In this document: positions 2,581-64,000 of the stretch, piece by piece
How the letters are laid out: each line of letters begins with the position of its first letter
How positions within the stretch are numbered: position 1 is the stretch's first letter
NCBI GenBank assembly: GCA_044892505.1
Contig: CM097882.1
Coordinates: 126,046,001 to 126,110,000 of the forward strand
Source: Schmidtea nova
Lineage: Eukaryota
Direction: 5' to 3'
DNA: 64,000 nt
Program-made: the position numbers and the translations under genes
The notes under the pieces: generated by a model
The model's database searches: none
The model's input: the letters and a program-made list of their open reading frames with translations, nothing else
Told to the model about the DNA's origin: nothing

Positions 2581-3042
2581 TTACAAATACACAGTAATTC
2601 TTTCGTCTATTTCGAGATTGCACATCGGGCATTTGTCGCAATTGGCTGCACAGATTCTACAAAACCGGAAATGTCCACATGGTAAAAACATGATTTTATT
2701 CTCTCTTTCTCGACATATGTAACAGAGTTTAAATTTCTTAGCTGTCTCAGTTCCTTGTATCGTCCACTTGTGGTATGTTGGAGTTAATTGTTGTTCTAGC
2801 TGTCTGCATTTTATGTTTACATCAGCATTTTCTAATCTCGTTCGGTACCACTTGTATCTAGTTGTTATATCTATTTTGTCTACTCTTTCCAATATTTTTA
2901 TCAGCTCTGTTGTCTCTTCAGTTTGTGTCATGGGTTCTTTGAATCCGGATTCTCTTATTCGACTTATTTTCTCGCATAATTCATCGTATGTTTTGTTTTC
3001 CGTGTTTAAGAATTCTTCTATTTCTTTTAATTTGTCGTTCAT
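2581..3042 (-). CDS. Coiled-coil + C-terminal C3HC4 RING protein (IAP/MDM2-type RING, putative E3 ligase), no BIR domain
   Basis: Intact 153-aa ORF with CYIC...FLPCGHFRFCRICAANCDKCPMC and a terminal ITVYL tail typical of C-terminal IAP-type RINGs. Intronless; an acceptor-like TTTAG lies 2 nt before the ATG. Confidence 0.85.
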   Translation of the reverse strand: MNDKLKEIEEFLNTENKTYDELCEKISRIRESGFKEPMTQTEETTELIKILERVDKIDITTRYKWYRTRLENADVNIKCRQLEQQLTPTYHKWTIQGTETAKKFKLCYICRERENKIMFLPCGHFRFCRICAANCDKCPMCNLEIDERITVYL

Positions 3043-3344: not shown

Positions 3345-3500
3345 TTTTCGGCTGAGGGGCACTTTAAAACTCCTGGTTATTATTGGATTCAATTTTCCGC
3401 ACAAAAACCAATTTAATCCCGGCTGAGTGGCACTTTAAAACTCCCTGTTATTGTTGGATTCAATTTTTCGCACAAAAACTAATTTCATCCCGGCTGAGCC
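3345..3500. repeat. 71-bp tandem duplication containing degenerate PBS copies
   Basis: CGGCTGAG recurs at 3349, 3420 and 3491; the intervening GGCACTTTAAAACTCC...TTGGATTCAATTTT-CGCACAAAAAC sequences align. Confidence 0.9.
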
Positions 3501-3504
3501 CCCA
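3487..3504 (-). promoter_or_regulatory. Primer-binding site complementary to the tRNA-Pro 3' end
   Basis: Minus strand TGGGGGCTCAGCCGGGAT versus the classical tRNA-Pro PBS TGGGGGCTCGTCCGGGAT (16/18), a few nt after the LTR-terminal CA. Confidence 0.85.
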
Positions 3505-3599
3505 AATTTATGTTGTTGGTCTCTGGATTGGGTTAAAACAAAAATAGTAAATTAAACTAATAATTATTTTTAAACGCTCTAGGGATTCCTCCATCCAAA

Positions 3600-3790
3600 A
3601 CCTCACATAAAATGCTTGCATATCACACGAGCACCCTCGATCATTTCCCTGTGATAATCGAGTTGGAAATGTGCAAGGTGTTTGAACAATGATGGGCAGG
3701 TGAGCTCTATTGCTAAAACTACTCCCCATTTATGTTCACGGGTTCGTCTCGCTGCCGATAGAAGGACTTACGCTTTTACTTTAATCTATC
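3600..3790 (-). other. Highly conserved non-coding U5 block (block A)
   Basis: Near-identical to ~16065-16250 while flanks diverge; diverged copy at ~29440-29615; contains stem CTCGATTAT...ATGATCGAG. Confidence 0.8.
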
Positions 3791-4118
3791 CGCATCCATT
3801 ATGTTTCATTTCAATGTGTCTTTAGCCCCCTTTCTTTACAATATATTTCAACTTTCAACTTTTCTTTCAGCCCCCTTCTTTACAATATCAACAAGTAATC
3901 TTTAGTCAATTACAATATATTATCTCTTTAATGTTTCTATTGTTTATTAGATTTATGTTAATCTTATTGTTAATTCTAATGTATAGTTAATTTAATCCAT
4001 TTTTTCCTTTAAATTATTTTAAATTTTTAATAAATCACTCTATTTCATATACTTTACGATAAAATAAATACAAAACAAAAATTATTTAATACGCGAAAAT
4101 AACTACATCACAGAATTC

Positions 4119-4712
4119 CTATTCAAAGTATTTGGTAATGTCTTCATCTGATATTGCAAAGTTCATAGTTAGATCAATTTCGGGAATTTCTGTTGATTGT
4201 TGTGCCAATTGCTGAAGAACTTGTTTCTTCCAGCGACGCTGGCGCGCTCCCATCTTGCTCTTCTTCTTCCTTTTACCATCTGGATTTGTCGTGTTCTTTG
4301 GTGTACTTGCTGCTATTGTTATTGCGCGAACCTGAGATGGTTCCTCGGTGTTCGTTCCTTTTGTGCATCCTGCTTTCTCGTCAGCCCAATGCTGATAAGT
4401 GATTGGACGAATGAGCTGGCTGAGCTCTTGAGTTAAATACGACGCCGTTACAGATTTTAGACATTTCTTTAGTTCCATCTTCGTCGCGTCCAATTCCATT
4501 TGGATCTCTTCGTTTGCTCGCTGTGAGCGTTGATTTTTTATAATTTGTGTTTTCATCTGCTCCGGACTGAACCAGCTTTTCTTCAGGTTTGAGATTATGC
4601 CATCGGCTTCTTTTATTTTTTCAGATTTCCGTAACATTTCTTTTTCGAGGCTGCGGATTATCCTCCATGCTTTATCCAATTCGGCTTGATTAGTTGCTGT
4701 ATTGGCTGACAT
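4119..4712 (-). CDS. LTR-encoded 197-aa protein: N-terminal coiled coil, Arg/Lys-rich motif KRKKKSKMGARQRRWKKQ, acidic/hydrophobic C-terminus; function unknown
   Basis: Intact ORF with a paralog at 16537-17127 (roughly 70% aa identity by eye). ELDKAWRIIRSLEKE shows 9 of 15 codons with synonymous differences and no replacements. Confidence 0.9.
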   Translation of the reverse strand: MSANTATNQAELDKAWRIIRSLEKEMLRKSEKIKEADGIISNLKKSWFSPEQMKTQIIKNQRSQRANEEIQMELDATKMELKKCLKSVTASYLTQELSQLIRPITYQHWADEKAGCTKGTNTEEPSQVRAITIAASTPKNTTNPDGKRKKKSKMGARQRRWKKQVLQQLAQQSTEIPEIDLTMNFAISDEDITKYFE

Positions 4713-4840
4713 TCTCTAAAATTCAAGATGATTTATTAACATGAAATTGGTAGTCTTGATTCGAACGATTCTCATACTTTTGACGGTTATCGATTGCTAA
4801 TTCAGGAAAAGAAAATGATTTACCTATTACACTTTCAACA

Positions 4841-4976
4841 CTGTCGCTATGTACAGCGATCAGATACATTTATTTCATAATACGTTTTATTTATTCACGC
4901 CTGTGCTATATACAGCAATCAGGTTACCAAATTATTTAAATAAACTAAGATCCACTGCCCTATGTACAGGGTTCAG
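4841..4976 (-). other. Three conserved stem-loops (class II) with sense-strand UGUA(C/U)AUA
   Basis: Plus strand CTGTCGCT-ATGTAC-AGCGATCAG (4841), CTGTGCT-ATATAC-AGCAATCAG (4901), CTGCCCT-ATGTAC-AGGGTTCAG (4955). Conserved at 17253, 17313 and 17369 with diverged spacers. Confidence 0.85.
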
Positions 4977-5357
4977 GATAAGCAATTATATTTAATTATT
5001 TATGTGGAATGTTTGATCCTATAGCCTATTGCTGCTATGTTACTTGCGTAGTAGATCACTACGCTATTAGAGTTATCGATTTTTGATAATGTTATTAAAA
5101 ATATGTTTTGTACAAATTCTTAACCGTATATCTGCCGCTCTATGCCCACAAACCCCAGATGTGACAATCGAAAAATATAGGTGAATACTCGGTGAATCTC
5201 AAGGTAAAATCAGATTACTAAAATCGCAGTTACATCTGTATCCAACTAAAATCAAACTCAACTCAACTATAAACTTAAAAAATCAATTCGGTTATAAAAT
5301 AAAAACTTCAACTGGCTATACTCCAGTGAAAAATAAGGTTAGAAATCAAAAAATAAA

Positions 5358-5478
5358 AATTCCTACCCTCTTCACGGCGCTTTACACCGGTCGGACGGCC
5401 CAACTGTACGGAGCAGTCATTCTACTCGGCACAGTATGCCTCCATTTCACCGATTGCACGGTGATCGGAGCCCCTTAA
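5358..5478 (-). other. Conserved GC-rich structured block (block B)
   Basis: Aligns with ~17768-17888; compensatory CACCG/CGGTG to CATCG/CGATG stem change; GGCA-CAGTA-TGCC hairpin. Confidence 0.7.
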
Positions 5479-5533
5479 ATCATACGTAATTTTCTACTAT
5501 AACTACGGTATATAAATAATATATATTCGCCTC

Positions 5534-5726
5534 CTTCCACTGATTTCACAGTGGAAGAAGCTCGACCCAAAAATTTATTCATAAAAGAATTTATACTTAT
5601 ACGTATTTGTTAGCATTCTACCATAAGATTATCTCCTTCCACTGATTTCACAGTGGAGGAAGCTTAATAAAATATAAATAGGTATATAGATATCTTTGCC
5701 TCCTTCCACCGATTTCACGGTGGAAG
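5534..5726 (-). other. Three conserved stem-loops (class I), CTTCCAC(T/C)G-ATTTCA-C(A/G)GTGGAAG
   Basis: Copies at 5534, 5636 and 5703 with unrelated AT-rich spacers; compensatory T-A to C-G change in the third; two copies at ~17940 and ~18020. Confidence 0.9.
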
Positions 5727-5857
5727 AAGCTTGAATATTTCTAAATTCAAAGAAAAGAATAAATCCTAGATAACATTTCATAAAGTTTATTGATAATCAC
5801 ATAATGGCTAACAGAAATCATAAAACAATAGTAACAAAATTATCAAAAATCAAAAAT

Positions 5858-6058
5858 CCATACCTGTTAGTTTTTTCAATAAATTCGTCTCACAAAAGTT
5901 GTAAATAACAAAATGTTGAAAATTATCATACATATATATTTAACTGAATCTGGATCAGTATTTATACTGACCAGATCAGATGCTGAACCAATCAGCGTGA
6001 AGCTGATGTTCAGATCGCTACAAATAATAAATTTCATTAATAATCAAATCGATTGGTT
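5858..6058 (-). promoter_or_regulatory. LTR promoter (two CCAAT boxes, TATAAATA at 5966-5959) and first 5' splice site (CAG|GTATGG, GT at 5863-5862)
   Basis: TATA-like (TATATATA ~18265), AACCAATCAG (~18291) and TAG|GTATGG (18158) are conserved in LTR2 despite divergent flanks. Confidence 0.6.
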
Positions 6059-6351
6059 TGCTTTAAATCGCTAACAATTTGTTGTTTTTGATTTTTAATA
6101 TTCTGTAATTCTTTTTCTTTATTATTTCTTTATTTTGCCTTAAATATAATTAAATATCATTGTTTCTTTAACACTTTTACATTTTCTATTTACTTTCTTC
6201 TAAATTTTGATAGAAAATTAATATTCTTTATTACATTTTAATTCGTTTTTTACTGATATTTCTCGTAATTATATTCATTTAATTTGTTCCTATTTATTTC
6301 TTATTATTATTATTTTTTATGTTAAATGTGGATCAAATGGTGGATCCAACA

Positions 6352-6985
6352 AAATTTAACCATGATACTTGCACTTTTTAAAATTTTAAAAAATTATTTA
6401 AATTTGAAATTAATCATCGATGACGTCATAGATTTGAAATTTGAAATGAGTCATCGAGGAGTCATCAATTTAAATTTTTAAAATTTTAAAAAATCTAAAA
6501 AATAACTTTGAAAAAAATAGCTGAGTGATCGATAACTCCGAAAAACAAAAAAAATTTGAGAAATAATCAAAATTGAGAAAGTTCAAAAAAAAATTGCTTA
6601 TTTTTCGATGAGTCATAAAAGTTTTGGATGAGTCATCCATTAGTAAGCGATTGGTCCAATAAAATTTTTTTTTTAAACAGAAAATTTTTCGAAAATATAA
6701 GATAACAGAAAAAAGTAAAAAAAGTAAATAAAAAAATGTTTTTTAAAAACAGAAAATATTTCAAAAAAAAGGTAAAAAAAATAAAGGTAAAAAAAAAGTA
6801 AAAAAAAAGTTTTTAAAAAACAGAAATTTTTTCGAAAAAAAGGTAAAAAAAGATAGAAAAAAATTTTAAAAATTTTTTTGACTCCCCTCGCACACGCAAA
6901 AAAATTGCCGCCCCCTACCCCCCAAGGGGCTTGGTAACTAATATGTCTTTGTTTGAATTTTTACGCCCACGCATTTCTACCTACT
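6352..6985. repeat. Dispersed repeat, truncated copy (family unassigned)
   Basis: Aligns with ~22018-22690 (AAATTT(A/G)ACCATGATAC...GATGAGTCATC...CCCTACCCC...TTACGCCCACGC); cut on the left by LTR1. Confidence 0.8.
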
Positions 6986-6989
6986 CAAT

Positions 6990-9725
6990 AAATATTGCAA
7001 AAAACATATAATAATATTATAATAAAGAAGTACAACACAAAAGTAATCTTAAAATTATATAAAACTGCCACATTTCTAACAAATCACAGAAAATAGACAA
7101 TATAAAATAATTTTCATTTAAAACAATTATAGAAAATAAAAAAATAGAGAAAAATCACATTTAGATGAATATATTCCACAAATAAAAAAATCATCAATGT
7201 GATGGCTGCTGATTTTTTACATTGCATAAACTTTCGATTCTGGGAGCTATATTTGTTATAGATAGGCGTAAAGCTGGGCTAATTTCCAAATTATTTCTTT
7301 GCTTGATTTTTATGAGCGTCATTGCGGAGAATGCAGATTCACACAAATATGTTGTTGAAAATGGTAGCAACACTCTCATTGATTTTGTATGTAAATCTGC
7401 ATACTCATTTTTAACTTGAATCCAAAATTGAATTTTATCTTTCGAGCTGAATTGTAATTTTAATGAAGAGTCGCAACTTAACTCTACTAATTTTTCCTCT
7501 TCCGAATCAGACAAGTCCACATATTTCCCTTTCGCATATTTCATGTTTCTGTAAAAAGTAGTCTTCGAACGCGTAAGAAATCCCTGCTAGATGTTCAGAA
7601 ATAATATTTGATAAAGACTCGGTATTCACATTCACTGTATTTAATAATTCTTCGAAAGAGTGGAACACTCTGCAGTTTTTTTCTTCAATACGCTTGCGCC
7701 ATAATTCTCTTTTTTTTGAATGCATCGATTTTATACCATAAATTAAAAATAGTAATGCTATTTTCTTGAAGACTTAAATTTAAATCGTTGAATAATGAAA
7801 ATATGTCCGACAAATATGCCAAATTTGCCATCCATTCGTCGTTGCGGAAAAAAGGCTAATTCTGAATTCTTTGTATTTAAAAAGGATTTAACTTCAAAAA
7901 GAGTCTTTGTAATATTCTTCCCCTCGACAGCCATCGTACTTCTGCATGAAGTAATAAATTTTCATGCCCAGATCCAATTTCATTACATAAAGTAGAAAAT
8001 AATCTTGAATTTAATGCGTTACTCTTGATATAATTTATGATTCGTATAGATTGAGAAAGTACGCAGTTCAGGTCTGGAGACATTTTTTCCCCACATAAAT
8101 GCTGTCGGTGTATGAAGCAATGAGTAAATATCATTCCAACTGCATCTACCTTTAAAATTTTTGCTGCGACTCCCGAATGTTTCTCTGTCATGCTTGCCGC
8201 ACCATCAGTACATAAACCAATACAATTTTTCCAATTTATTGATTTATTTTCGATGTATGTGTTGAGAGCTTTAAATATTTCTAAGTTAGTTGTGTGACTA
8301 GGAAGTTCAAGACAACAAAGTATTTCTTCTTTACTCTCGTTTATTTCGTGATCAATATAACGAACGTAACATAAAAGTATTGCTTTGTTAGACATATCAG
8401 TGGATTCGTCCATCTGAATAGCAAACAATGATTTGTTTACTTTTTGAATGAGTTGATCTTCAACATCAGTTGCTAATTCAACGATTCTTCGTTGAATTGT
8501 ATCATTGAAAAAAGGCAAACTTTTCATTTTACCTCCGGCTGTGGGGCCCAGTAATTCAGAGCATACGTTTATCAAACAAGGTTTGATTAAATTTTCGGCG
8601 ATAGAGTATGGCTTCTTGCATTTTGCGATTCTTAAGGCCACTAAATATGAAGACTTTACTAGATACTTGTCGACTAAAAAGCATTTTTTAAAAGATGTTT
8701 GATGTTTAAAGTCAAGGCTTTGGCTTTCAAAATAATTCAGGGGCTTATTTTGTAAGGTTGGATGTTTGGTTTTTAAGTGTCGTAGTAAGTTTGCTGGTTT
8801 CATACATTCATTTGATTAAACGTCCTTACAAATAACACATTGTAGCTTAGGTAATTTTTCTTCCGATTTTTGCCAAAGAATTAAACCAAATTTTAAATAA
8901 TCATTATTGTATTGACGAACAAAAATACATTTTCGTTTTGCCTGTGGTGAATCATTTTGGTAATTATTAATAATTTCACTTGTATTCGAAGTATTGAGCA
9001 TGTTTTTTGAAAAAGATTTTCAATTTTTCTTGGTATTCTCTTATTACTCATTTTTAAAAATACTAAAAATAAATTAATAATTAATAATTTTGATCATAAA
9101 TTATTTAAATTCAATGCTCAATACCTATTTAATTTAAAAGAATTAAGTTATAACGTTTTATATGCATAAAAAATAATGAATTGTTTAATAATCATATATC
9201 ATATATAAACAATAATAATTTCAGCAAATATACTTTTTTCCATCCACACGCTGTCAAATCGCACACTAAAATAATAAAATTTAACGGAAATGTAGTAACA
9301 ACTGCGTACCGAAACTTTTCCCTTCCCCTTCTTTGCAAACTCGTCTAGTTTGCATTTGACTCAACCGATCGCTCGTTGCATTTCGACCTTTTGCGCTCGG
9401 CCTCAGAGTGTTTTATAGTCACACGTAAATTAAATTTTATTTACTGGATGTACTGTGAAGATCAAATTATGTAGTAACTACATTGTAGTTGATAATGAAC
9501 TGATGTTATGAAGTAACACATAATATTTATTTTATGAAATTAAAAAAGTCATTTAATTATTTAGTTAAAAGTTTTTGTTAGCAAAAGTATAATAATTATT
9601 AAAAAGTTTCGTTATCATCACTTGAAATTTTCCGAATTTCAGTGAGAACCCTAAAACTTTCGCGGACCCGTAGAACTTTCCTGCGGACTGGTGCCTGTCC
9701 GCGGACCGGCTGTTGAGAAACACTG
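6990..9725 (-). mobile_element. hAT (Buster/Charlie-like) DNA transposon, one end missing
   Basis: Right terminus GTTGAGAAACACTG (rc CAGTGTTTCTCAAC) ends at 9725; no matching left TIR found; encloses transposase fragments. Confidence 0.75.
7194..9001 (-). pseudogene. Buster/ZBED5/SCAND3-like hAT transposase, frameshifted
   Basis: BED finger fragment (CVICKDV...MKPANLLRHLKTKH), FAIQMDESTD, CTDGAASM, CFIHRQHL, HAEVRWLSRG, LLPFSTTYLCESAFS split over 4-5 ORFs. Confidence 0.92.
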
Positions 9726-9931
9726 GTATAGATTATAGTATATTTTCCAAATCTATCTATAGATTGTTGAGGTTTTTTATCCGAAACTTCATTTTGGAAA
9801 TAATTCTCTGTGATACTCTAGTCTTGTAATTAATATTAATTAACATTTCTAAAAGTTTTGATTCTTACATTTAAATATATAATTGTTTAGATGTTATAAA
9901 CAAAATTAAAACAAATAATCAAATTTATAAT

Positions 9932-11445: not shown

Positions 11446-14400
11446 TTATTTAAATAAAACTGTTTCTTCTTCAGTTTGATCTTGGAATTGCTGATCTGGA
11501 TTGATTCTTGGATCGATATGTTGAAATATAACCAAGTCACTTTCCATATAATGGCCATATGCCAAGCTTTTATTTTTCGCAATCCATTTCTTTTTATCAT
11601 CTGCGTTTGTCAGTGCAGTCTTTTCATTTTTATAGTGTAAAAAGTTGATGATTTTTACTTGTGATTCTGGTTTGGGGAAAAAAAATATTTGGGTATTATT
11701 AAAACAGTTTAAGTACGACTGATGTTTTATGTCAGTACCCGCCAATGTTGCCCCTTTAGCTTTATTAGTTTCCTCGTCATCTAAAAGACTATAACATTTA
11801 GGTCTATGAAACACCCACTCCTGGTACTTAAGCCCTTTATTCTCGTCTTTGAACTTGCCAATGACAGAATCAAGGTTCCTACTGTATAATGGGTGATTCG
11901 GATTATAATTAGAAGTGTCAAGTAAGTTATCTCTTATCATGGCCGGTAAAAGAACATCAAGCTTACAATTTCTAATCTCAAGAAAAAATGAATCGGTGTC
12001 ACCAGCAACGATGTTGATTTCGCAGTTGAATTCGTTACGATATTTTTGTAACTCTTCATACTGCAGCTGGTACATTCTAAGTTTAGATAGATCCAGTACA
12101 GTTTAACCAATGTACCTGGGTCTATCCAAACACACAGATTTCTTATTCAGCAAGACGGCAACCAAATCATCGTCAATTTCGAAAGTCCTTTAAGTCTGGT
12201 ATTGGTGTCGATGTAATCCTTAAAAATTTATGCTTGTTTGAATTTAATTGCCCTATGGACATGAGTTATTTTTACTCCAAGAGAAAAAAAAATTTGAGAA
12301 GTCGTAAAATTTTTTTGTGAGAAGTCGTAATGCGTAAGCATCAACTTCTCAGCCTTTGAGCCAGGTGGACACATCTTTTCAGCGGCAACCTGCAAATCAT
12401 CCAGCTTGTCGTGAATCGAATCAGGAATTTCTAAATCGACTTCGATTGTAAACCCAAATGTTAATACTTCTAAATCAGCAGATTCACAGTAATAAATTAT
12501 TTTATTTTATTTTTTCCTATCATTTACCCATTTAAATTCTTTATACGGTAGTTTTTGGCTTAAAGCCCACCCATATAAATTATTTATATCTATATAAAGA
12601 AGCTCAGTGTCGTCAGAAGATACTACATGATGTTTGTTAACAAATGTTATCCCACCCCGGATCCCCCTTTCGAAAAAATTATATATCTCCATATCTTGAA
12701 GCAACTGGATAGGAGATTTTAAAGTCATCAAAGAAGAACTCCATGACATGCCTGGAATTCCCAAGAAACTAAGAGGCTCAAGTCGATTATGTGCAATGGA
12801 TTTTGCCCTAAACTGCTGAAAAAGTCGGCAAGTAAGAAAACATCCAATTTCAGATATATCATCATATAATCAAACAATGTTTCACAATTAAATTCATCCC
12901 ATATATGTTGAGCCTTTTCATACTCGTCGATATTAACTACCTTCCAAATTGGTGGCAACTCGTATGTATTTTGTAAAACCTCTAAAGAAGTTGCAAAATT
13001 ATATGGGAATATGCCTTTGGAAGTAATACTAGTCCCTATAAATTCGGATGAAGTAAGAGGAAAATCTGTTAAAGTCTTTACAGCATCGTTTAAGCTACAG
13101 CTTACAAATTGGCAAGAATCGATAAATTTAATAGTTAAACTATCGACTCTTGCATATAAAGTCAAAAACTTTTCACTTGTAGTAGGAATACAACTTATAT
13201 CCCATTTAACGAATTTATTTAAACCATACTTGAGGATATGATGCAAATCATATCCGCGTAAATTATGAAATATGACTGGCATGATGAATCTTATTTGTCG
13301 AGAAAAATTGCATTTAGAGCAAGCCGCACCCAAATATTTACCTGTATAATGGTCATGATCTTTAACCGGATTTCTCAAAGGTTTATTACACAAATAACAA
13401 ATTGTAGAACTACGAAATGATCTTATTTGTGAAGGGGAAAGATATTCCATTTTCTTTTTGGAATTATTTATAAAGTAAGGCAAAACTACTTTTTTTCCTA
13501 TATCGTTGATTTCAGTCAAAACCTCTTCTACGCAGTTAAGACCATAAGAGCTTTTATACGATTTTTCGCCAGTAAAGTTATTAATAAGCAACAAACCAGT
13601 GGAAATAGGTAAGTGACGTTTAAAATACTTATCGTCCTTGGGTAAAACAGCCTCAAAATCGGCATATACAACGAAAGGAGGGGTAACAATTTTTGACCAA
13701 TCTTTTAATTCCAAGTTCTTATCTGAAGGCAAAGTGTACAAAGTTGTACCTAACTGGTTTTTTGTACATAAAGCCTGATGTTTCTCAAAAGCTTCAGTCT
13801 TTCTAAATCCATTCAAGCAACGCTCGCACCAATTACATCTTATCCTAACATGCGTAACAGAAAGAGTGTCACAGTTCAAAAGCCTGTCAAGATTGGTAAC
13901 TCCTATATAGGGAAAAGAGTCACTTTCCTCTAACAAAATCAAATTAATTAGAGTGTCACCTACATTTGACCTATGAATAATATGAATAATATACGAATAA
14001 TACCTATGAATAATAATACCTATGAATAATATCTACAAATGAATGTTTCATGACTTCATCCTCCTCATTAATATTATTTAAATCATACTCATAATAGCCA
14101 GCCCAAAGTTTTTTTGCTTCAAATTTGGGTATATTACATAATTTCATTGGAAAATCAGAAGGATCGAAAACAGGGTCTGAGGGATTATAATTAGATGCTC
14201 TATTTCTATAATGACTGTTAACCTCATCATATTTTAAAATAGCCAAAATGCTATATATAAAGCACAAGTTATCAGTATTCTTTACATTGACAGTGCAATG
14301 TTTTGCATTTAATGATGGTGGAGTTTAACAAGAACCTTTACCGCTCAATCTACTTATTTGCGAATATTTTTTAAGTTTAAAGCTTATTTCTTTAATTTTA

Positions 14401-14570
14401 TTTATTGACCAATTGCTGCCATTTTCACAGACTTTAGTCATTTTTTCACTTAATAGAGCAATACCTTCATCACTCATTGGCTTTGCGGAATTTAATATTA
14501 TAAGAGATTGAAATTCCCCAGTTTTTTCAAATTCTATATCAATGCAAAATTGTACTTTTATATATCCCAT
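11446..14570 (-). pseudogene. Protein-primed family B DNA polymerase (Polinton/Maverick type) with endonuclease-VII-like Zn motif; copy 1
   Basis: GSNW, CFIYSILA, PPFVVYADFE, KDHDHYTGKYLGAACSKCN, VIFHNLRGYDLH, KFIDS, KLDVFLLAD, LYIDINNLYGWA, AGDTDS, GKFKDE, RPKCY, DDKK. Several frameshifts; motif B (KxxxNxxYG) region deleted near 12190. Confidence 0.92.
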
Positions 14571-14621
14571 TTTGGAAATAACTGAATTAAATTTATTTAA
14601 TAAAGGCGAATGAATAATTAA

Positions 14622-15002
14622 TTAATTTAAATTTAAAGAATTCACATCCATTTTAACAATGGCATGAGATTTTTTCAAATTATATTTAACCAAAGGTTCA
14701 ACAGAACCGCCATATTGGACAACATGCAAATTAGGAATAACTAAAACATTGTCATTTGATGAATGAACATCTTCATCATCGGATAATACAATTATTTTAG
14801 CAGGTTTAGGACAAACAGAAACATTTCGTCGTTTACTTTTATTAATTAATGCGAAAAGACTTTTCTTAGTGCATGATAATTGATTTAAATGGAGATAATG
14901 TTGGAAATAAAAATCAATGTAATTTATATGTTGGGCGCTCTTACATGTGGGACATAAATAGAAGGTGACTTGGTTATTTATAATACGATAGTATCGCTCC
15001 AT
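14622..15002 (-). CDS. Hypothetical protein with CxxC/His Zn-binding-like motif upstream of pPolB
   Basis: 126-aa ATG-initiated ORF (CPTC...HYLH; QYGG), same strand and directly upstream of the polymerase. Confidence 0.4.
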   Translation of the reverse strand: MERYYRIINNQVTFYLCPTCKSAQHINYIDFYFQHYLHLNQLSCTKKSLFALINKSKRRNVSVCPKPAKIIVLSDDEDVHSSNDNVLVIPNLHVVQYGGSVEPLVKYNLKKSHAIVKMDVNSLNLN

Positions 15003-15984
15003 TAACTTGTGGCAGTTGTTATGATTTGACGACTTACAATAATTCGCATAAAATTTACCTTAATATGAAATATCTTTAAATTTATCAAAAGATCATTAAA
15101 AATAAATTAATAAAAATATGAATTATTAGAAAATAAATATGAAATTTAAGATAAATATGATTTAAATATAATAATTACTAAAATAATTTAAATTTAATAT
15201 AAAACTTATTACTAAATAATATTAAAGGAATTTGTTTAAATTAACTGTTTACGTAAAGTAAAGATTATTTAAATTATTACAAAATATTACCAAAAATATA
15301 TATTTACAAATATTTTACTAAAGTTATTTACTAAATTGATTAAAATAATTATCAAAATATAATTAAATTAATTAAAATTAATCAATACTTACATTGAACA
15401 TTCAGTACCACATCAGGTATAACTCCATTATTCATTATATTCTCATTATTAACAATCTCAGCTTGTACGGTAGTTTGTTCAGTCATATTTACATCACCTA
15501 AAGTAAAAGTTAAATAATTTACTAACTTAATGATTAAGTACCATTTTCTTCACCATTTTCTAAAATCGATTTCCCAATTGAATAATTGATATTACCTAAA
15601 TTAATACTAAATGATAATAAATTAAAAACGGGTTTTCCACGGGTTTTCGTTCATAAAACTTGTTATAATGTTCATTTTAAATGTTTATTATTTGTTAAAG
15701 TGAATAATGAATGAAAAAGTATTGTTTATATATCAAAGTTATTACACACACATAACCTTTGACCAATAAAAATCGAGTAAGGGGTAGGAAATTTATTCTT
15801 ATTAGCCAATCAGAATCGACTAAGAGGCAGAAAAGCTATTATTATCATCAAATCAAGTTCAAGAAAATGATAGAGAATTATGACTTAATATATATTGCGT
15901 TGCAGTATTTTAAAAAACTAGAAAAGTTATTTCAACAAATTATAATACACATCAAAGTTATAAAATATTTCAATGAAATGCATG

Positions 15985-18657
15985 TGTTGGGCGTGTTGGA
16001 TGGGTTAAAACAAAAAGATAAAATAATTGAACGCTCTAGGGATGCCTCCATCCAAGACCAAACATAAAATGCTTACGTATCACACGAGCACCCTCGATCA
16101 TTTCCCTGTAATAATCGAGTTGGAAATGTGCAAGGTGTTTGAACAATGATGGGCAGGTGAGCTCTATTGCTAAAACTAATCCCCATTTATGTTCACGGGT
16201 TCGTCTCGCTGCCGATAGAAGGACTTACGCTTTACCTTTACTTTAATCTATCCGCATTCATTATCTTTTAATTCAATTTTTTCCTCTGCCCCCTTCTTTA
16301 CAATATCAACAGATAATTCCAATTAATTACAATATGTTATCTCTTTAATGCTCCTATTGTTTATTATATTTATGTCAATCCTATTGTCAATTATAATCTA
16401 CATTTAATTTAATTTTAAATTTTTAATAAAATACTTTATTTCCAATACTTTATAATAAAATAAATACAAAAACAAAAAAATATAATTAAGCTAAATTTTT
16501 ATACACAATTCAATAATACTAAAAATTCTCAAGTCGTCATTCAAAATATTTGATAATATCTTCATCAGTTACTACGAAATCCATAGTTAAGTCGATTTCC
16601 GGTATTTCTTTTGAATGATGTATCAATTGTTGTAGGACTTGCTTTTTCCAACGACGCTGACGTGCGCCCATCTTACTCTTCTTCTTCTTTTTAATCTCTG
16701 GATTTCCTACGCTTTTTGGTGTAGTTTGCATTGGGATTTCTCGAACCTGAGATGGTTCATCCGTATTTGTTCCTTTTGAACAGCTTGACTTCTCTTCAGC
16801 CCAATGCTGATATGTAATTGGACGGATGAGTTGTTTCAACTCTTGATTGAGGTAAGAAGCCGTTACCGATTTCAAGCATTTCCTTAATTCTATTTTAGTT
16901 GCTTCCAGCTCCATTTTATATTCATCATTCGCTCGTTGAGAGCGTTGATTCTTGAGAAGTTGGGCCTTCATTTGGTCTGGGCTAAACCAGCTCTTTTTTA
17001 ACTTTGCTATGGTGATGTCGGCTTCTTTTATTCTTTCCGATTTATTGGATATCTCCTTCTCAAGGCTGCGGATAATACGCCAAGCCTTGTCCAATTCTGA
17101 TTGAAGAGTTGCTGATGTGATTGACATTTTTCTAGAATTCAAGATGGTTTATCAATATGAACTTGGTTTTTTTTTGGTTTGAATAACTCTCATAATTTCT
17201 ACGACTATTAACTTCCAATTCAGGAAAAGAAATAATATACATCCTTTCAACACTGTCGCTATGTACAGCGATCAGATACATTCATTTGATAATTCATTTC
17301 ATTTATTCACACCTGTGCTATATACAGCAACCAGGATAATAAATTATTAAAAATAAAACTAAGATCTACTGCCCTATGTACAGGGTTCAGGATAATATAT
17401 TACATTTCCTTATGAATTATCTGTGTTGAATATTTGATCCGTTGATGATGCTCTATTTGTGTGGTAGATCACTGAACTACGCTATTAAAGTTATCGATTT
17501 CTTACATTCTTTCATTTAAAGGTGTATGCTACACTTATTCCTAAGCTTTATATCAGCCGCTTTATGTCAACAAACCCCAGATGTGACAATCGTAAAAATA
17601 GGGTACTATTCTGTTAATCCAAATAGGAAATCAGATCAATAATAATCACATCTATTATTATCTCAAAAATAAAATCAATCTATGATTATCTCAAAATTAA
17701 AATTAAACTCAAACTCAAACTGGTTATACTATCCAGTGATAAAAAGTGTTAGCATTTATGGTTAGTAAAATCCTACCCTCCGAGTGGCACTTTATACCAG
17801 TCGGACGGCCTAACTGTACGGAGCAATCTTTTACTCGGCACAGTATGCCTCCTTTCATCGATTTCACGATGTTCAGGAGCCCCCTTGCATAATAATACAT
17901 ATCTATACTTAAATACAATATATAATATAAATTCGCCTCCTTCCACCGATTACACAGTGGAAGAAGCTCGACCAAAATATAATCCTGAATAATATAAATA
18001 ATCTAATACCCTTGTCTCCTTCCACCGATTACACAGTGGAAGAAGCTTGAACAAATAAAAAGTATAACTAAAATTATTCATAAAACTTTTAATTGTTAAT
18101 GACAATAATGACAGAAATCATACAAATATTAACAAAAATAAAAATCAATAACCCATACCTAGTATCTATCTGGATTGAAATAGAAAGTTTCAGTAAAATC
18201 TAACTAGATCAATACTTGCAAAAAGCTTGAAAAAATCATTGAACTCATCTGAATCTGCATCAGTATATATACTGATCAGATCAATTTTTGAACCAATCAG
18301 CTTGAAGCTGATTATCAGACCAATACAAGTTCATTAAAATAATAAATTTTTATTAAAACTAAAATCGATTTATTTTTGTTTTAAATAACTAAATTTTCTT
18401 GTTTTGATTTCTAATTTAACCTAAAATAATTATATTTTCCACTCTAATCTTTCATTTTTCCTGTTACGTTTCCACATATCTTATTTATTTTTTAATCTTT
18501 TTATTCCATTAATTATTCCATTAATTATTTTATTTTTATTTATTCTACTACTTTACATTTAAATCTTTATGATAATATTATCCTAATTTAACATATTTAT
18601 TTTATTCTATTATTATTGTTTATTTAATTAAATGTTGGTCATTTGGTGGACCCAACA
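15985..18657 (-). mobile_element. Solo LTR (2673 bp, LTR2), paralog of LTR1
   Basis: TGTTGG...CCAACA ends with 4-bp TSD CATG (15981-15984 and 18658-18661); collinear with LTR1. Confidence 0.92.
16537..17127 (-). CDS. LTR-encoded 196-aa coiled-coil/Arg-rich protein, paralog of 4119-4712
   Basis: Intact ORF; ATG at 17127 aligns with the LTR1 ATG (the track's 17142 start is a TTG extension). Confidence 0.9.
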   Translation of the reverse strand: MSITSATLQSELDKAWRIIRSLEKEISNKSERIKEADITIAKLKKSWFSPDQMKAQLLKNQRSQRANDEYKMELEATKIELRKCLKSVTASYLNQELKQLIRPITYQHWAEEKSSCSKGTNTDEPSQVREIPMQTTPKSVGNPEIKKKKKSKMGARQRRWKKQVLQQLIHHSKEIPEIDLTMDFVVTDEDIIKYFE

Positions 18658-21739: not shown

Positions 21740-22695
21740 TTGTTTAAATATTATGACCATGAAAAGATATTTTCAATTAGATATATAATTTGTTTGAAAT
21801 TTTTGTTTCAAAATTTTATTTTTACATCACACACCTTCAAAGATAATACCGTCGTGTGTATCTCGCGAAGGGCTTTCGAACGATACCAATATTTACCGAG
21901 GTACTTTAAATTTTTAAAATTTTAAATTTGTGATACAAATTTTTATTTTTTTCGATCAGACACCTTCAAAAATCATACCATCATGTGCATCACTGAAATG
22001 CTTTTCTAGCGATACCAAATTTGACCATGATACCTGCACTTTTAAAAATTTTTAAAAATTATTTAAATTTGAAATTAATCATTGATGACGTCATATAACT
22101 CAAATTTTAAATGATTCATCGATGCCTCATCGGATGAGTCATCGATGAGACATGTCGATGAGTCATCAATTAAAAATTTTAAAAACTTTTTTAAAAATTT
22201 AAAAAATAACTTCTGAAAAAATAGCTGAGTCATCAAAAACCCCGAAAAACAAAAAAAATCAAAATTGAGAAAGTTCAAAAAAAATTTGCTTATTTTTCGA
22301 TGAGTCATAAAAATTTTTGATGAGTCATCGATTTATAAGCGATAGGAAATTTTTCGAAAATAAAAGATAAAAGTAAAAAAAGATAAATAAAGTAAATAAA
22401 ATTTTTTTTTTTTAAAACAGAATATATTTCAAAAAAGGTAAAAAAGTTTTTAAAAAAAAAGTTTTAAAAAACAGAAAATATTTCAAAAAAAAGGTAAAAA
22501 AAACTAAAAAAAAGTTTTAAAAAAAAGAAAATTTTTCGAAAAAAGGTAAAAAAATAGAAAAAAATTTTTTTAACCCCCTCGCCCAAGCAAATTTTTTTGC
22601 CCCCTACCCCCATATGGCTCAGTAACTAATATGTATTTGTTTGAATTTTTACGCCCACGCTTCTCTTTGTGTTTGATTCCATACATCTACCTACT
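21740..22695. repeat. Dispersed repeat, longer copy of 6352-6985, with internal duplication
   Basis: ACACCTTCAAA...CGATACCAA segment occurs twice (~21830 and ~21960); the right part aligns to 6352-6985. Confidence 0.75.
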
Positions 22696-50346: not shown

Positions 50347-51378
50347 ATGGAAAACGACAACGAGACCAGGAGACGCAAACCGCGAACGACAATCACTGTA
50401 AAAGATCTCGAAACAATTTATGCGATGCGTAATGATGGCGATTCATTTGTAAAAATCGCCAGGAATCTAAATCTATCTACCATAACTGTCCAGAAACGAT
50501 TTGTGGAGATTGATAGATGTAAGTTTGAAAACATTAATTTATCGACTTTGGTCAAGAAGAAAGGCAGAGCCGTTGTAAACGATGGCAACATATTATTGCA
50601 GTTGCAGAGAATTATCCAAGACGACCCACTTTTTACGCAAAGAGGAATGAGGAATAAATTGGAAGCAAATAATATTCTGACATCTCAGCCAACGATCTCG
50701 CGGAAATTGAAAGATGTAGAGATAACAAGGAAAAGGGTAAAGAGAGTATACGAAAAAGTGAGGGATTTGCGAATAATTAATGAACGAAAGGCCTTTTCGA
50801 TAAAATATAGGAATACTCCGAACTCCAAATTATTGTATCTCGATGAAACAGGACTTAATCACCACACAATGATGAATTATGGATATTCACCGAAGAATAC
50901 GCCGGTAAATGTTCTTGTAAAACCAAGAGGAATGAATGTCAGCTGCATGGTTTTGATTTCTAATGAACATATATTAAAATATAAATTAATAGACGGAGCT
51001 AATAATGCGTGTAGTTTTCAAGATTTCATGAATGAGGCAGTGGAAGAAGGTATTGATTTTAGAAATCGAATTGTCTTGATGAACAATGTAAGATTTCACA
51101 AAACTGCTTCGATGAGAGAGTTTTTTAACTTAAAAAACATTGCTTTTGATTTTATTCCCCCATATTCCCCTGCATTAAATCCAATTGAAGAATGCTTCAG
51201 TGTTTTCAAGGCAAGATATTTCAATAAAAGACCGCTACCACAGAATAATTCGGATATTAAACAGTTGGTTGCGGAAGTTTTTGGTGAAATGAATGAAGAT
51301 ATTGGTCTTGACATGAATGCATTCTACGTATATATGAGGGAGTTCATGGAGTTGGCCTACACGGGTGCCTTTTTTTAA
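50347..51378 (+). CDS. IS630/Tc1-mariner transposase (D34E spacing), second catalytic Asp replaced by Asn
   Basis: 343-aa intact ORF: HTH, LYLDETG, IVLMNNVRFH, IPPYSPALNPIEE; 34 residues between N and E. No TIRs found. Confidence 0.9.
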   Translation: MENDNETRRRKPRTTITVKDLETIYAMRNDGDSFVKIARNLNLSTITVQKRFVEIDRCKFENINLSTLVKKKGRAVVNDGNILLQLQRIIQDDPLFTQRGMRNKLEANNILTSQPTISRKLKDVEITRKRVKRVYEKVRDLRIINERKAFSIKYRNTPNSKLLYLDETGLNHHTMMNYGYSPKNTPVNVLVKPRGMNVSCMVLISNEHILKYKLIDGANNACSFQDFMNEAVEEGIDFRNRIVLMNNVRFHKTASMREFFNLKNIAFDFIPPYSPALNPIEECFSVFKARYFNKRPLPQNNSDIKQLVAEVFGEMNEDIGLDMNAFYVYMREFMELAYTGAFF

Positions 51379-54877: not shown

Positions 54878-56596
54878 GTAAGTATTTTATTTTAATGTTA
54901 AATTTTTCTAAAACTTAATCATTTTCTTTATAAACTAATAATTTAAAAATTCGTGTTGCGGGGGTTTCAATTTTTTACTGAAAATATTTGGTTACTCAAT
55001 TCAAAGTGAATTAATTATATATATTTTTCATCATTATCTTTTGGTATTTTTATTTTTATTTATGATGAACATCTCTTATTTTCATCATTGATCTTTTCGT
55101 TTCTGTTTCAGAATCCATGTTGTTAAAAGAAAATGAAATTACGGAAATTGTTGATTTTTCATTTTAAATAAGTTAGCAGGTCAAAAGCATGCTAACTTTG
55201 AAAATTATTATTTTTTATTCTTAATTAGTGTTTTTGGTTAGTTGATAGTTTGTTGAAGTTTTATTGTTATGAAACACTTCTGCATAGTTATTTATATATT
55301 TAATCCAAATTATACCTTATTTTCGCATATATAGTCTAACTAAAAGCTTAGCTGCTCTGATACTTTTAATAGATTTTTTACTTTTAGCATGTAACGTTAC
55401 TATTGAGCAATCTTTTCTTGCCCATTCTTGACATTTTATATTTTTTGACAATAACAACTTGAAATCTTAATGTAACACATGTATCAATATTTTTAAATTT
55501 GGAAGTTACATTTATATTAAGTTTAATTTTTTATAATATGTACCTAGTTAGATTAACAGTGCGATTTTTTTAATTTAAAAATATTTAAAATATCTGAATT
55601 AGACTTTCAATATCATTTATTTTTCTATTTATCAGTTTTTTTATAAATTGCATTAAATATGGTTATTTAGGTCACCATCCAGAATATCATTTCCATAAAA
55701 AGGCTAGTGACATCAGTAAGTTCATATTATTTTTTAATTGTTTAAATATCTCAAGTAAATTTAAATTGGTTTTATACTGGATAATAAAAATCTAATATGT
55801 TATGTAATTTATTTCTGATAATAAAGTCCAAATTTAGTTTTCTTGCAATTAGATGAAAAAATGCCCAAAATAAATCCAAAATAAATAATTTTATTTTAGT
55901 AGGGGATTGTGAGTGGTCTAGCACAAGTCATTTATTCCTAAACTGTATTCCTAAACGCAATAATTATATAGTTTACCCCCAATTACATAATACTTTATGC
56001 ATTATGTAATACTTCATATAATAAGTAACACTTTGCAAGTAACGTAATCATTTTATAATCATTACATAATACTTAATATACTCCATAATCATTACGAAAT
56101 GCTTATGTATTCTGCAATACCTTATATACTATGTAATCATTACTTAATATTTTATTTACTACGTAACTTTATAAAAAACTTTAAAAATTATATACTCACT
56201 TATTTGTTACGCAATTGCTGACGTTACACTGATATTTATTAATTTTTATTTATTTTTTCATAATTTTTACAAAAAATATTAAATAAATAAATTTTTTCAA
56301 CATTTTTTCCAAAACTTTCAAAAATGCTCCGATTTAAATAATTTTTATACCAATCTACTGAGAATTATTTGGCGAAAAAAAGGGTTAAACAGTAAAAACA
56401 TGAAAAATTGGTCTTCTCCGATAAATTTTACATGAAAAAACCTTACTTGGTTAAAAATGTTTAGAATTCAAGTACTTTACATATAAATAATCAGAATTTA
56501 ACGCTCAACAATAAAAAAGTAATATTAACTAGAAAAACAACAAAAAACAAAGTATTTTAAAAAAATAAAACTTTATTTAAATAAATCTTCTCATCT

Positions 56597-59150
56597 TTAG
56601 GCAAATTGTTCAGCAGCCTCTTCACGCACCCCCATGACCACATCAATTCCCTTATAATGTTCATAAGCCAGACTAACATTTTTTCCCACCCAAAGTTTTT
56701 TATCGTCAAGATTAGTCTAGGCAATCTTCGAAGATTTATTAGTAAAGAGTTGACGATTCTTACTAACAATTCTCGACTGATCAACAGAAACTATTCAATT
56801 ATTATTATAACAATCCAGATACGACTGATGATTCAGTTTAGTATCCTTCAATGTTATACCCTTAGCCTTAATGCACTCTTCATCACCTAAAAGACTGTAA
56901 CACTTTGGCCTAAGAAACACCCACTCATCATATTTTAATCCTTTATTTTCGTCTTTGAATTTACCAATGATGGAATCTAGGTTTTTCGAGTACAAGGTAT
57001 GATTTGGGTCATAATTCGAAGTATCTAATAACCTATCCCTAACTATAGCAAACAAAAGAATATCCAACTTACAATTCTTAACTTCCAAGAAGAAAGAATC
57101 TGTATCACCAGCGACTATACCAATCTCACAGTTGAAAAAAAATCGCTAACTACAATAACTGTAAAAGATCTCGAAACAATTTATGCGATGCGTAATGATG
57201 GCGATTCATTTGTAAAAATCGCCAGGAATCTAAATCTATCTACCATAACTGTCCAGAAACGATTTGTGGAGATTGATAGATGTAAGTTTGAAAACATTAA
57301 TTTATCGACTTTGGTCAAGAAGAAAGGCAGAGCCGTTGTAAACGATGTCAACATATACATCCTAAGTTTAGATAAATCCAGTACAGTTTGACCAATGTAG
57401 CTGGGTCTATCTAAACACAGAGTCCTTATTAAGCAAGACAGAAACTAGGTCATCGTCAATCCTATAAGTTTTTCTAAAGGTAGGTTTTGAAGTATATGTA
57501 ATCAGTTTTGATGCTGAATTACATAGTCGTAAAAAATTGAGTAGTTTCTTAAGATTTTCAACCGTTTTTCCATAAAGAATATTATCTAAAAGTTTGTAAT
57601 GGTTTTTATCTAAAGCCGTAGAAGATGCTGTCCTAAGTTCAGTGTTCGTATCTATATATTTTTTAAAGATAGGTTTCTGTTTGTACTGAACAGCTCGATG
57701 AACTCGTGTTATTTTAACACCCAAAGAAAGAAAAAGCTTGAGAAGTCTCCAATGAACAACATAGTTGAACTTTGGATAATGCGTAAGCATTAACTTCTCA
57801 ACATTTGAACCCGGAACACACATTTTCTCTGCTGCAACTGGAAAATCATTTAATTTATCGTGAATTTCTGAAGGGATTTCAAGATCCACTTCAAAAGTCA
57901 CGTCATAAGTTAAAATAGCCAAATCAGCATCCATTAATTTAATTAATTAATTAAATTTATTTTGATCTGTGATCCAACTAAATTCACTAAAAGGTAATTT
58001 TTGACTTAAAGCCCACCCGTATAAATTATTTATGTCAATGTATAAAAGTTCAGTCGTTTCGGAGGATACTACATGATGCTTGAAAAAATTATAAATCTCC
58101 ATATCCTTGAGCAACTCTATAGGTTCATCCAAGGTAATAAGCGCAGAATCCCACGACATACCTAGAATACCCAAGAAATTCAAAGGCTCAAGTCTATTGT
58201 GAGCTATAGATTTAGCCTTAAACTGTTGAAAGAAACCAGCAAGAAGAAAAACATCCAGTTTAAGGTAGACCATCATATAGTCACACAGAGTTTGACACTG
58301 GGATTCCCTCCAAATCACCAATGCCTTGCCATATTCGTCTTGTTTAACACCTTCCAATTTTGGTGGCAACTCATAAGTGTTGTTAAGGATTTCTAAAGAT
58401 GTTGCAAAATCATAAGGAAAAATACCCTTACAATCAACAATAGTCCCGGTGAATTCAGATCTAGTCAAAGGCAAACAAGTAAGAGTCTTAACGGCGTCAT
58501 TTAAACTAGAATTTACAAACTGACAAGAATCGATGAATTTAATGGTTAAATCACCAACCCTTGCAGATAAAGTTAAGAATTTTTCACGGGTTGTAGGAAT
58601 GCAAGAAATTTAAGAATATGGTGCAAATCATAGCCCTTTAAATTATGAAAAATAACGGGTAAAAACTTGTATAAACGACGGGATTGATTACAAGAATTAC
58701 AAGCAGCTCCCAAAAATTCACCAGTGTAGTGATCATGGTTTCTGACTGGTTGTACTAAAGTTTTCCTACAAAGATAACAAATAGTAGCAGAAGCAACAGA
58801 TTGTTGATTAGCTACTGTCATTAGAAGAGGTTTATTGTAATTATTTTTATAAAAAGGATAAACAATAGTTTCAGAAATATCACTAATTTCAGTAAGAAAA
58901 TTAGTCACACAATCAAAACCTAAGAAACTTTTGTAATTTTTTTTCGCCAGTAAAATTATTTACAAGTAAAAGACTGGCAGGTATTGGGACATGTCTTGAA
59001 AATATTTTTCATCATTAGGTAAGATTGCCTCAAAATCGGCGTAAACAACAAAAGGTGGGGTAATTGTTTTGCCCCAATTACTAAATTTCAAGTTTTTATT
59101 TCTAGGCAGAGTATAAAGAGTTGTGCCTAATTGATTTTAACACACAACTG
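56597..59150 (-). pseudogene. Polinton-type pPolB, copy 2, 5'-truncated and frameshifted
   Basis: PPFVVYADFE, RNHDHYTGEFLGAACNSCN, KLDVFLL, YIDINNLYGWA, KLLDNILYGKT, AGDTDS, GKFKDE, RPKCY; diverged paralog of copy 1. Confidence 0.9.
57158..57356 (+). other. 199-bp near-identical copy of IS630 transposase 50395-50593 embedded in pPolB copy 2
   Basis: Constant offset 6763; one mismatch seen; CAACATAT shared at the right junction. Confidence 0.9.
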
Positions 59151-63195: not shown

Positions 63196-64000
63196 TCAAA
63201 AATTATATTGTTGGTTTCCTCGACTTGTTAATTGAGTGAATACTAGCATAAAGAAATGCAAACATGGAAATGAAACCATTTTAAAAGCTAATTTTCTCAA
63301 ATCAGCATTCAATTGACCAGGGAATCTCAAACATGTTGTCATCCCACTCATTATAGCTCTTACTAATTGATTCAAATTCTCGTAAGTTGGAGTTGTCAAT
63401 TTCAAACTTCTAAAGCAAATATCGCATAAAGCTTCATTGTCAATACAGAATGTTTCATAAGTATTTTCAACTAACTGATGGACTGATAAAGTAGCATTGT
63501 AGGGTTCAACAAAGGTGTCTGACACTTTGGGTGATAGCACAACCGAGAATGTGTTCATAATTCTGTCTTGATATACTTTTATGATTTTAGAGATTAGTAG
63601 GGTTCCCATACCAGAACTTGTTCCACCTACCAATGAGTGAGTCAATTGAAAACATCGCAAACAGTCACAAGATTCAGCTTCTTTTCGTACAAGATCTAAA
63701 ACAGAGTTGAGTAATTCTGCCCCTTCGGTGTAATGTCCTTTGGCCCAGTTATTACCAGCTCCACTTTGTCTGAAAACAAAGTTGTCTGGTCTGAATAATT
63801 GACCAAATAGTCCAGCTCTCACAGAATCCATAGTTCCCGGTTGCAAATCAATCAGAATTGCTCGGTGAACATACTTTCCACCAGTAGCTTCATTCTAGTT
63901 GCAAATTGGAATCTCCGTGGTATGTATCAGTTGGATCAATACCATGCTCATCAGAAATAACTTCCCAAAACTTGGCACCAATTTGGTTATCACAATGACC
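63196..64000 (-). pseudogene. TUBB: Beta-tubulin pseudogene (intronless over this stretch, 3'-truncated)
   Basis: [56 protein letters not shown] 20-nt deletion gives TGA at 63892-63890; GGGTGSG became VGGTSSG; stop after QQYNF. Confidence 0.92.

Follow-up and report, generated by a model that had tools for sequence, protein, structure and literature searches.

Three conserved bulged hairpins with Pumilio-type tips in the long terminal repeat of a Schmidtea nova retroelement

Among the closest described systems are the HSUR1 and HSUR2 RNAs of Herpesvirus saimiri, whose 3' stem-loop has a conserved Pumilio element (PRE) in its loop, to which PUM1/2 bind in cells to the benefit of the virus (PMC13692250). 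Published data on PUM2 indicate a preference for G at position +1 and freedom among A, C, and U at core position 5 (10.1101/403006). On RNA structure, predicted folds of up to ~4 kcal/mol do not lower the PUM2 eCLIP signal in cells (10.1101/403006), and paired PRE bases were harmless to binding in a massively parallel assay (10.1101/2024.05.03.592352). PUM2 in vitro showed no binding to base-paired, stably structured sites (PMC6521599), and another assay is premised on the absence of PUM2 binding to paired sites (10.1101/571588). Motif models are described as over-predicting hairpins around Puf sites (PMC4253089). PREs are near-palindromic; UGUACAUA is a less repressive variant, and G/C-rich flanks weaken repression (10.1101/2024.05.03.592352).

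Here, we describe three hairpins at 4841-4976, on the minus strand, of a 64,000-nucleotide stretch of Schmidtea nova DNA (the window, meaning the whole stretch analyzed). Common to all three are the core CUGUAYAUAG, a base stem of CUG paired with CAG, and a bulge of 1-2 nt. Going from base to tip, the CUG/CAG stem is followed by the 5'-side bulge, then by 2-3 variable pairs, one C-G pair, and finally the octamer. A second trio lies in a solo long terminal repeat (LTR) further along the window (Table 1). The three strings quoted by the first-pass annotation are present as written within 4841-4976 on the minus strand, and its period of ~57 nt agrees with measured spacings of 54 and 59 nt in LTR1; those in the solo LTR are 56 and 59 nt. 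The octamers occupy 4961-4968, 4907-4914, and 4848-4855 in LTR1, and 17375-17382, 17319-17326, and 17260-17267 in the solo LTR. All six read UGUAYAUA followed by G, lie on the sense strand as assigned from the primer-binding site and the LTR ORF, and are the sole sense-strand PREs in either LTR.

Table 1. Positions of the hairpins, the LTRs, and associated features in the window
Feature	Positions	Strand	Description
Hairpin 1 (h1)	4955-4976 (4976-4955 in transcript order)	-	CUG-AA-CC-C-UGUACAUA-G-GG-CAG; first in transcript; apex UGUACAUA
Hairpin 2 (h2)	4901-4922 (4922-4901)	-	CUG-AU-UG-C-UGUAUAUA-G-CA-CAG; 2-nt bulge; apex UGUAUAUA
Hairpin 3 (h3)	4841-4863 (4863-4841)	-	CUG-A-UCG-C-UGUACAUA-G-CGA-CAG; A bulge; apex UGUACAUA
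Second trio, solo LTR	17253-17390	-	h1 17369-17390, h2 17313-17334, h3 17253-17275
LTR1	3511-6351	-	~2.84 kb; TGTTG...CAACA ends; 5' LTR; internal region runs off the left edge of the window
Solo LTR, diverged subfamily	15985-18657	-	~2.67 kb; target-site duplication of 4 bp, CATG (or TGCA with ends set 2 bp wider); no primer-binding site
Primer-binding site	3487-3504	-	18 nt; starts TGG; 6 nt from LTR1 end
Accessory ORF, element's leader	2581-3042	-	C-terminal C3HC4 RING finger, PF13920, E 9.8e-12
Second hairpin array	5440-5730	-	4 copies (3 in solo LTR, 17848-18045); G-C-closed UGNAAU loops; minus-strand G·U pairs
Structured block	5355-5480	-	Conserved; stems changed but paired; strand-biased fold
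LTR ORF	4119-4712	-	197 aa; second copy 16537-17127, 196 aa; intact even in solo LTR
Predicted promoter	5959-5992	-	CCAAT box (ATTGG at 5992) 26 nt upstream of TATA (5966), the sole TATA conserved in both LTRs
Predicted intron	4716-5863	-	1148 nt; donor AG|GTATGG 5863; acceptor TAG 4718-4716, 3-4 nt before ORF AUG; contains both hairpin arrays
AAUAAA (3948) and AUUAAA (3932)	3927-3948	-	Conserved, after ORF; predicted end of R
AAUAAA	4890-4895	-	In the h2-h3 spacer; present in both LTRs; candidate poly(A) signal, though AT-rich DNA may yield it by chance

By itself, the octamer is a frequent motif, since TGTAHATA occurs 34 times in the window against 22.2 expected. The 10-mer CUGUAYAUAG is found six times on the two strands together, every time inside the two trios. 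With base composition taken into account, chance would give a trio within 130 nt ~7e-10 times per LTR (bare 8-mer: ~2e-4). In addition, the six trio sites are the six most stable local folds among the 34 (-6.6 to -9.1 kcal/mol; next -4.8). The claim that the stems differ and compensate one another is borne out: the upper stems change among the three hairpins in compensatory fashion, with 25/25 cells paired and two of five pairs altered on both sides. This pairing was equaled by 6 of 500 shuffles, for independent hairpin types that number only three. The loops had been called fixed, which is right for the octamer at 6/6 sites and too strong for position 5, where the loop carries C or U.

Both LTRs belong to retroelements. 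Hallmarks found are the TG...CA termini, the primer-binding site of LTR1, which we take to be of the tRNA-Pro type, and the target-site duplication of the solo LTR. The two are 73.7% identical over 2216 columns. We rejected a reading of the pair as ends of one element, given this 74% identity and a second LTR with its own target-site duplication and without a primer-binding site. We also rejected LTR1 as a solo LTR, a reading prompted by 7 bp shared between its flanks; the left flank consists of the primer-binding site rather than of the repeat that makes up the right flank. No gag, protease, RT, RNase H, or integrase domain was detected among the 21 ORFs scanned in the window, which the internal region of the element leaves. 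The RING ORF of the leader had no relatives at near or longer lengths in protein searches.

Several observations concern the leader, the LTRs, and their surroundings. Just downstream of the primer-binding site, the leader holds two more partial copies of that sequence (3345-3500), and further along it carries tandem arrays of 71 bp and 25 bp, at 1188-2126 and 2360-2559. A purine-rich tract ending in a G run (3810-3880) resembles a polypurine tract and lies within the LTR; LTR1 has it twice, the solo LTR once. The most conserved long block of the LTR (212/226 columns; 3570-3790 and 16027-16245) lies at the predicted U5 end, and part of it folds (z -2.9). A conserved island at 5136-5180 (CGATTGTCACATCTGGGGTTTG) has no predicted structure (z +1.0 to +1.6) and is a possible single-stranded or DNA site. 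In LTR1, the conserved TATA box sits at the center of a long inverted repeat (5935-5980, z -4.7). An unclassified AT-rich repeat of 630 bp with several GAGTCATC motifs is present at 6349-6978 and 22014-22666, and one copy abuts LTR1. Elsewhere in the window there are two broken regions of protein-primed-type family B DNA polymerase (11446-15059 and 56585-59138; PF03175 in both, PF02945 also in the first), presumably Polinton-like; a 217-bp fragment of the DDE_3 (Tc1/mariner-type) transposase ORF at 50347-51378 breaks up the second. A decayed hAT-type transposase region (7194-9817) and a degenerate tubulin gene (63196-63894) were also seen.

The hairpins are conserved between the two LTRs at 66 of 67 bases (h1 22/22, h2 21/22, h3 23/23). 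The near-identity reported by the first-pass annotation therefore stands, with a correction: what it called LTR2 belongs to another subfamily and is a solo LTR rather than the partner of LTR1, and this makes the conservation more telling. The spacers do differ, as it had said, and only moderately (76-84% identity): 31/37 and 26/34 columns are identical, 57/71 in total. Fourfold sites of the LTR ORF differ between the LTRs at 22 of 45 (49%). The bulge of h2 is AU in LTR1, GU in the solo LTR, and AA in a contig loose end in which stem and apex are intact.

Sequence variants were surveyed in four sequencing runs from one study, possibly including the source sample, with 303-441 contigs per run on 4770-5070. 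The 39 rows of other letters correspond to 35 variant positions, none of them (0/35) in the 67 hairpin bases; for the 18 variants within 4841-4976, avoidance of the hairpins has a hypergeometric p of 1.4e-6. This table supports constraint rather than measuring it, since it is skewed to conserved parts and misses the known h2 change of the solo LTR. Contig depth was highest on the hairpins and is not suited to ranking the parts. No RNA run was among those listed as containing the sequence, a result that says nothing about expression. In three of the four runs, contigs (4875 to 4845) point tentatively to a subfamily whose spacer is shorter and whose middle hairpin resembles h3. The trio is under strong purifying selection across subfamilies, and its pairing is kept through two-sided changes. 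We regard it as a real and conserved RNA element, very probably functional.

What might read this element? Pumilio is the leading candidate ligand. The match to the Pumilio consensus is real, and slightly better than the first-pass annotation claimed: 6/6 sites read UGUAYAUA and continue with the G that PUM2 prefers. The sole varying core position of the trio is position 5, the one that PUM2 ignores according to the published data, and G at +1 is present in all six. By those data, the six sense-strand sites match the Pumilio 9-mer of highest affinity. Position 5 is only C or U, never A, in three independent hairpins; TGTAAATA makes up 15 of the 28 other sites in the window.

The hairpins had also been described as displaying the octamer, a picture that predicted folding does not sustain. 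ViennaRNA pairs U1 with A8 at a probability of 0.95-0.98 and G2 with U7 at ~0.7, and the loop that remains is a UAYA tetraloop. To speak of displaying a Pumilio element is thus an overstatement, since the octamer ends are predicted to be paired and single hairpins are only modestly stable (minus strand z -0.8 to -1.8). The predicted cost of opening the octamer is 2.3 kcal/mol, inside the range tolerated in cells per the published PUM2 data, and that of unzipping a full hairpin is 6.8-9.6 kcal/mol. The fold of the whole trio (171 nt in LTR1) has a z of -1.1 in LTR1 and -2.6 in the solo LTR.

Folding of the trio alone cannot fix the strand, since the plus strand is equally foldable (z -2.2 to -2.5). 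That both strands fold about equally is in keeping with a role at the DNA level, in which the trio would be three near-palindromic signals for a transcription factor or for single-stranded DNA, with no role in RNA; repeated factor sites are common in LTRs. A double-stranded site, however, gives no reason for flanks that vary among copies and yet stay complementary, and the neighboring hairpins have minus-strand G·U pairs and strand-biased folding. We regard a purely DNA-level role as hardly likely at all.

The tips are also self-complementary. UGUACA is palindromic in two of the three hairpins, with a wobble version in the third, and the C/U change keeps pairing with G2. Retroviral DIS loops start dimerization between two genome copies, and tips of this kind might likewise start kissing or extended duplexes. 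Predicted homodimers reach -19.3 to -24.9 kcal/mol against -5.3 to -9.0 for each of two monomers; any hairpin, however, would profit from forming an extended duplex. The hexamer duplexes themselves are weak (-4.8, -2.9, and -1.0 kcal/mol vs -7.9 for a GC-richer reference), the first two bases of the palindrome are predicted to be buried, and the trailing UA is left unexplained. Dimerization is accordingly an account to which we give little chance.

The position of the trio within a predicted transcript adds a further layer. We modeled the LTR gene from signals conserved in the two LTR copies, that is, in two sequences only. Donor-like sites conserved across the whole LTR number two (5863, with a second candidate at 5366), and a single YAG, out of three downstream of the trio and ahead of the ORF AUG, is conserved. 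From these signals we infer a transcription start near 5935, a short U3, an R of ~2 kb, and a 1148-nt intron that encloses the trio and the second array. The unspliced leader has 17-18 ATGs, which makes it unlikely that scanning reaches the LTR ORF unless the leader is spliced. Joining 5863 to 4716 would produce a short mRNA for the LTR protein from which the trio is removed; with the trio in the predicted intron, only unspliced RNA, which is the genome and has both R copies, would retain it. Because integrated LTRs still contain the predicted intron, the template that is reverse-transcribed must be unspliced RNA, and an intronic array would thus be well placed to mark genomic RNA. Placement of the trio in R is plausible, and its 3' R copy would fall in the 3' UTR of genomic RNA if the predicted boundaries are right. 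The first-pass annotation proposed this placement, with possible control by Pumilio/Nanos in germ or stem cells, and overlooked the predicted intron.

R could instead end within the trio, at the AAUAAA of 4895, in a stretch (4885-4896) where the sequencing contigs list no substitution. In an account based on polyadenylation control, the UGUA tips would be CFIm25 enhancers around this signal, the hairpins would regulate the poly(A) site, and R would end near 4870. CFIm25 prefers UGUA, two UGUA lie 73 and 19 nt upstream of the AAUAAA, which is conserved in both LTRs, and GU-rich and U-rich tracts come after h3. A third UGUA copy, however, lies downstream of the signal, and the invariant AUA and the stems are unexplained, since UGUA suffices for this account. 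AAUAAA is also common in sequence of 67% AT (the LTR has 7 conserved AATAAA/ATTAAA), and the signals past the ORF, at 3948/3932, form a cleaner pair. We consider polyadenylation control very unlikely.

The LTR ORF is intact in both copies and under purifying selection: 147 of 197 residues are identical, and second codon positions differ at 25 of 197. The protein has long predicted helices of coiled-coil-like character and a basic Lys/Arg-rich helix (149-169) that is invariant over 21 residues. Searches found no relative among 1.84 billion representatives and no homologue by domain or sequence; two matches were set aside as unrelated repetitive proteins, and all hits against the Atlas were under 0.9. 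Foldseek returned no match for a single-sequence model (pLDDT 67, pTM 0.25).

A second hairpin array in the same predicted intron surpasses the trio in stability, with stems of up to 12 bp and z of -4.8 to -7.0 over five folded copies. Its UGNAAU loops correspond to GAAA, GUAA, and GCAA inside U·U, and compensatory changes are present. The structured block at 5355-5480 has z of -3.65 and -5.40 on the minus strand of the two LTRs vs -1.56 on the plus strand; a ribozyme reading of this block was dropped, with no support from Rfam.

These features bear on the possibility that the trio consists of shape-specific sites for a protein of the element. The reader could be the Arg/Lys-rich LTR protein, the alternative named by the first-pass annotation, in Rev/Rex-like export or TAR/boxB-like control, or the Gag nucleocapsid, at a packaging signal; the determinant would be the bulged stem and the UAYA tetraloop, and the Pumilio match would be incidental or secondary. 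The CUG/CAG base, the bulge, and the closing pairs are fixed, and the upper stems are compensated. The trio is set in a predicted intron, flanked by a conserved donor and by the acceptor of a gene whose product has an invariant basic helix and long oligomerization-type helices, with the second array and the structured block for company. In complex retroviruses, Rev-like proteins and structured elements export unspliced RNA (PMC3856414). Set against this, searches detected neither a homologue nor a fold match for the LTR protein, in which no clear leucine-rich export signal is seen by eye. Under this reading, the exact 9-nt match to the Pumilio site of best affinity would have arisen by coincidence (8-mer frequency ~2e-4 per position). 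The stronger UGNAAU hairpins are good candidates as ligand for the LTR protein, at least equal to the trio. On balance, reading by a protein of the element is the main rival account, possible and somewhat unlikely.

Part of the same evidence counts against Pumilio: a PUF protein has no need of shape reading, to which the three bulged stems with their compensation point. Further counterweights are the restriction of position 5 to C/U, the pairing of the octamer ends, the weak-repression variant and its flanks, and chance PRE likeness of the tips, since PREs are near-palindromic and hairpin tips may therefore resemble them more often than random sequence does. Recruitment by Pumilio and shape reading by a protein of the element can coexist.

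We tentatively favor Pumilio recruitment, at chances that fall a little short of even: the element may use the trio to recruit host Pumilio/PUF to its unspliced RNA, for its own benefit. In this mechanism, Pumilio would melt the two weak apical pairs, at a cost of ~2.3 kcal/mol, and load at up to three sites. The stems would block the near-palindromic sites from pairing with one another or with AU-rich neighbors, and a second protein may dock on the bulged CUG/CAG base. Since it is the element itself that conserves the sites, it should also be the one to profit from the effect; plain host-imposed decay would not be conserved. The most likely outcome would be that unspliced RNA is taken off ribosomes into RNP granules for storage or packaging, that it is localized, or that its level is tuned to Pumilio-rich cells.

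Whichever ligand binds the trio, the LTR appears to hold an unrecognized gene with a structured intron. If Pumilio binds, a retrotransposon would actively conserve sites for a core stem-cell and germline regulator, in a structure that in vitro rules deem hindering, and the handling of structured sites by PUF proteins would become testable with 30-nt RNAs. If the element's own protein binds, Rev/RRE-like control would extend to an invertebrate LTR element, via a protein without known relatives. A broader and distinctly unlikely scheme would make the LTR a self-contained unit of the complex-retrovirus kind: a spliced mRNA would encode an orphan Arg-rich regulator, the intron would be its response element, with arrays read by the element protein and by host Pumilio, and the switch between spliced and unspliced RNA would tie mobilization to Pumilio-rich stem or germ cells. 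Under such a switch, many LTR copies might in addition serve as a sink for Pumilio, in the manner of NORAD.

Database searches place the trio apart from catalogued RNAs. No Rfam family reached the gathering threshold in the window, and a U2 match at 5861-6006 (E 0.67), away from the trio, was treated as chance. A pattern of the triple motif had no occurrence in viral contigs and at least 105 stretches in metagenome contigs. Of the 104 metagenome loci screened, none matched either LTR (blastn) or the two ORFs (tblastn); by context, these loci are tandem repeats with almost identical units, and they lack the bulged stem with its CUG/CAG base.

Comparison with known systems reveals partial likenesses at several levels. 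As an element, the closest parallel is Burro, a giant gypsy-like planarian retroelement, which shares a multi-kb LTR, tandem repeats in the leader, a RING-type accessory ORF, many variant copies, and an AT-rich animal genome (PMC6431247). Burro has Gag, RT, integrase, BIR, BCL2, and env regions, the last three as domains of a giant polyprotein, whereas of the internal region of the element here only the RING ORF and the leader repeats lie within the window. The available text on Burro (PMC6431247) makes no mention of an LTR ORF or of hairpins, and searches gave no sequence hit; other published work on Burro concerns PIWI control, not LTR structure, as far as its available text goes (PMC8532177).

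As a regulatory layout, the intron recalls response elements of retroviruses, of which RxRE and RcRE lie in LTRs. Like Rev/RRE, Rex, Rem, and the MPMV CTE, it would present a structured cis-element only in unspliced RNA, beside the spliced gene of a small basic protein, here as predicted (PMC3856414). Unlike these systems, it has no sequence or fold similarity to them, its hairpins are separate and small, and its parent element is not a known retrovirus. In literature surveyed by title and abstract, mostly outside subscription journals, we found no report of Pumilio elements in LTR hairpins. A PRE in a loop and arrays of hairpins in an LTR each have precedent; what appears to be undescribed is their joint occurrence in a predicted intron next to an orphan basic protein.

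As RNA sites, the trio stands between two known kinds. Like HSUR1/2, it places a conserved PRE in a stem-loop of the RNA of a genetic parasite, the benefit to the parasite being shown there and proposed here (PMC13692250). Those RNAs carry one PRE per small Sm-class RNA, whereas three LTR hairpins with octamer ends predicted to be paired are found here, and PUM binding, seen in cells for HSUR1/2, is proposed for the trio. Like the PREs of 3' UTRs and the arrays of NORAD, the trio uses the identical 8-mer with G at +1, in multiple copies per RNA (10.1101/403006, 10.1101/2024.05.03.592352). Canonical PREs perform best in an unstructured, A/U-rich context, whereas those of the trio tip conserved G/C-rich stems ~57 nt apart in a predicted LTR intron.
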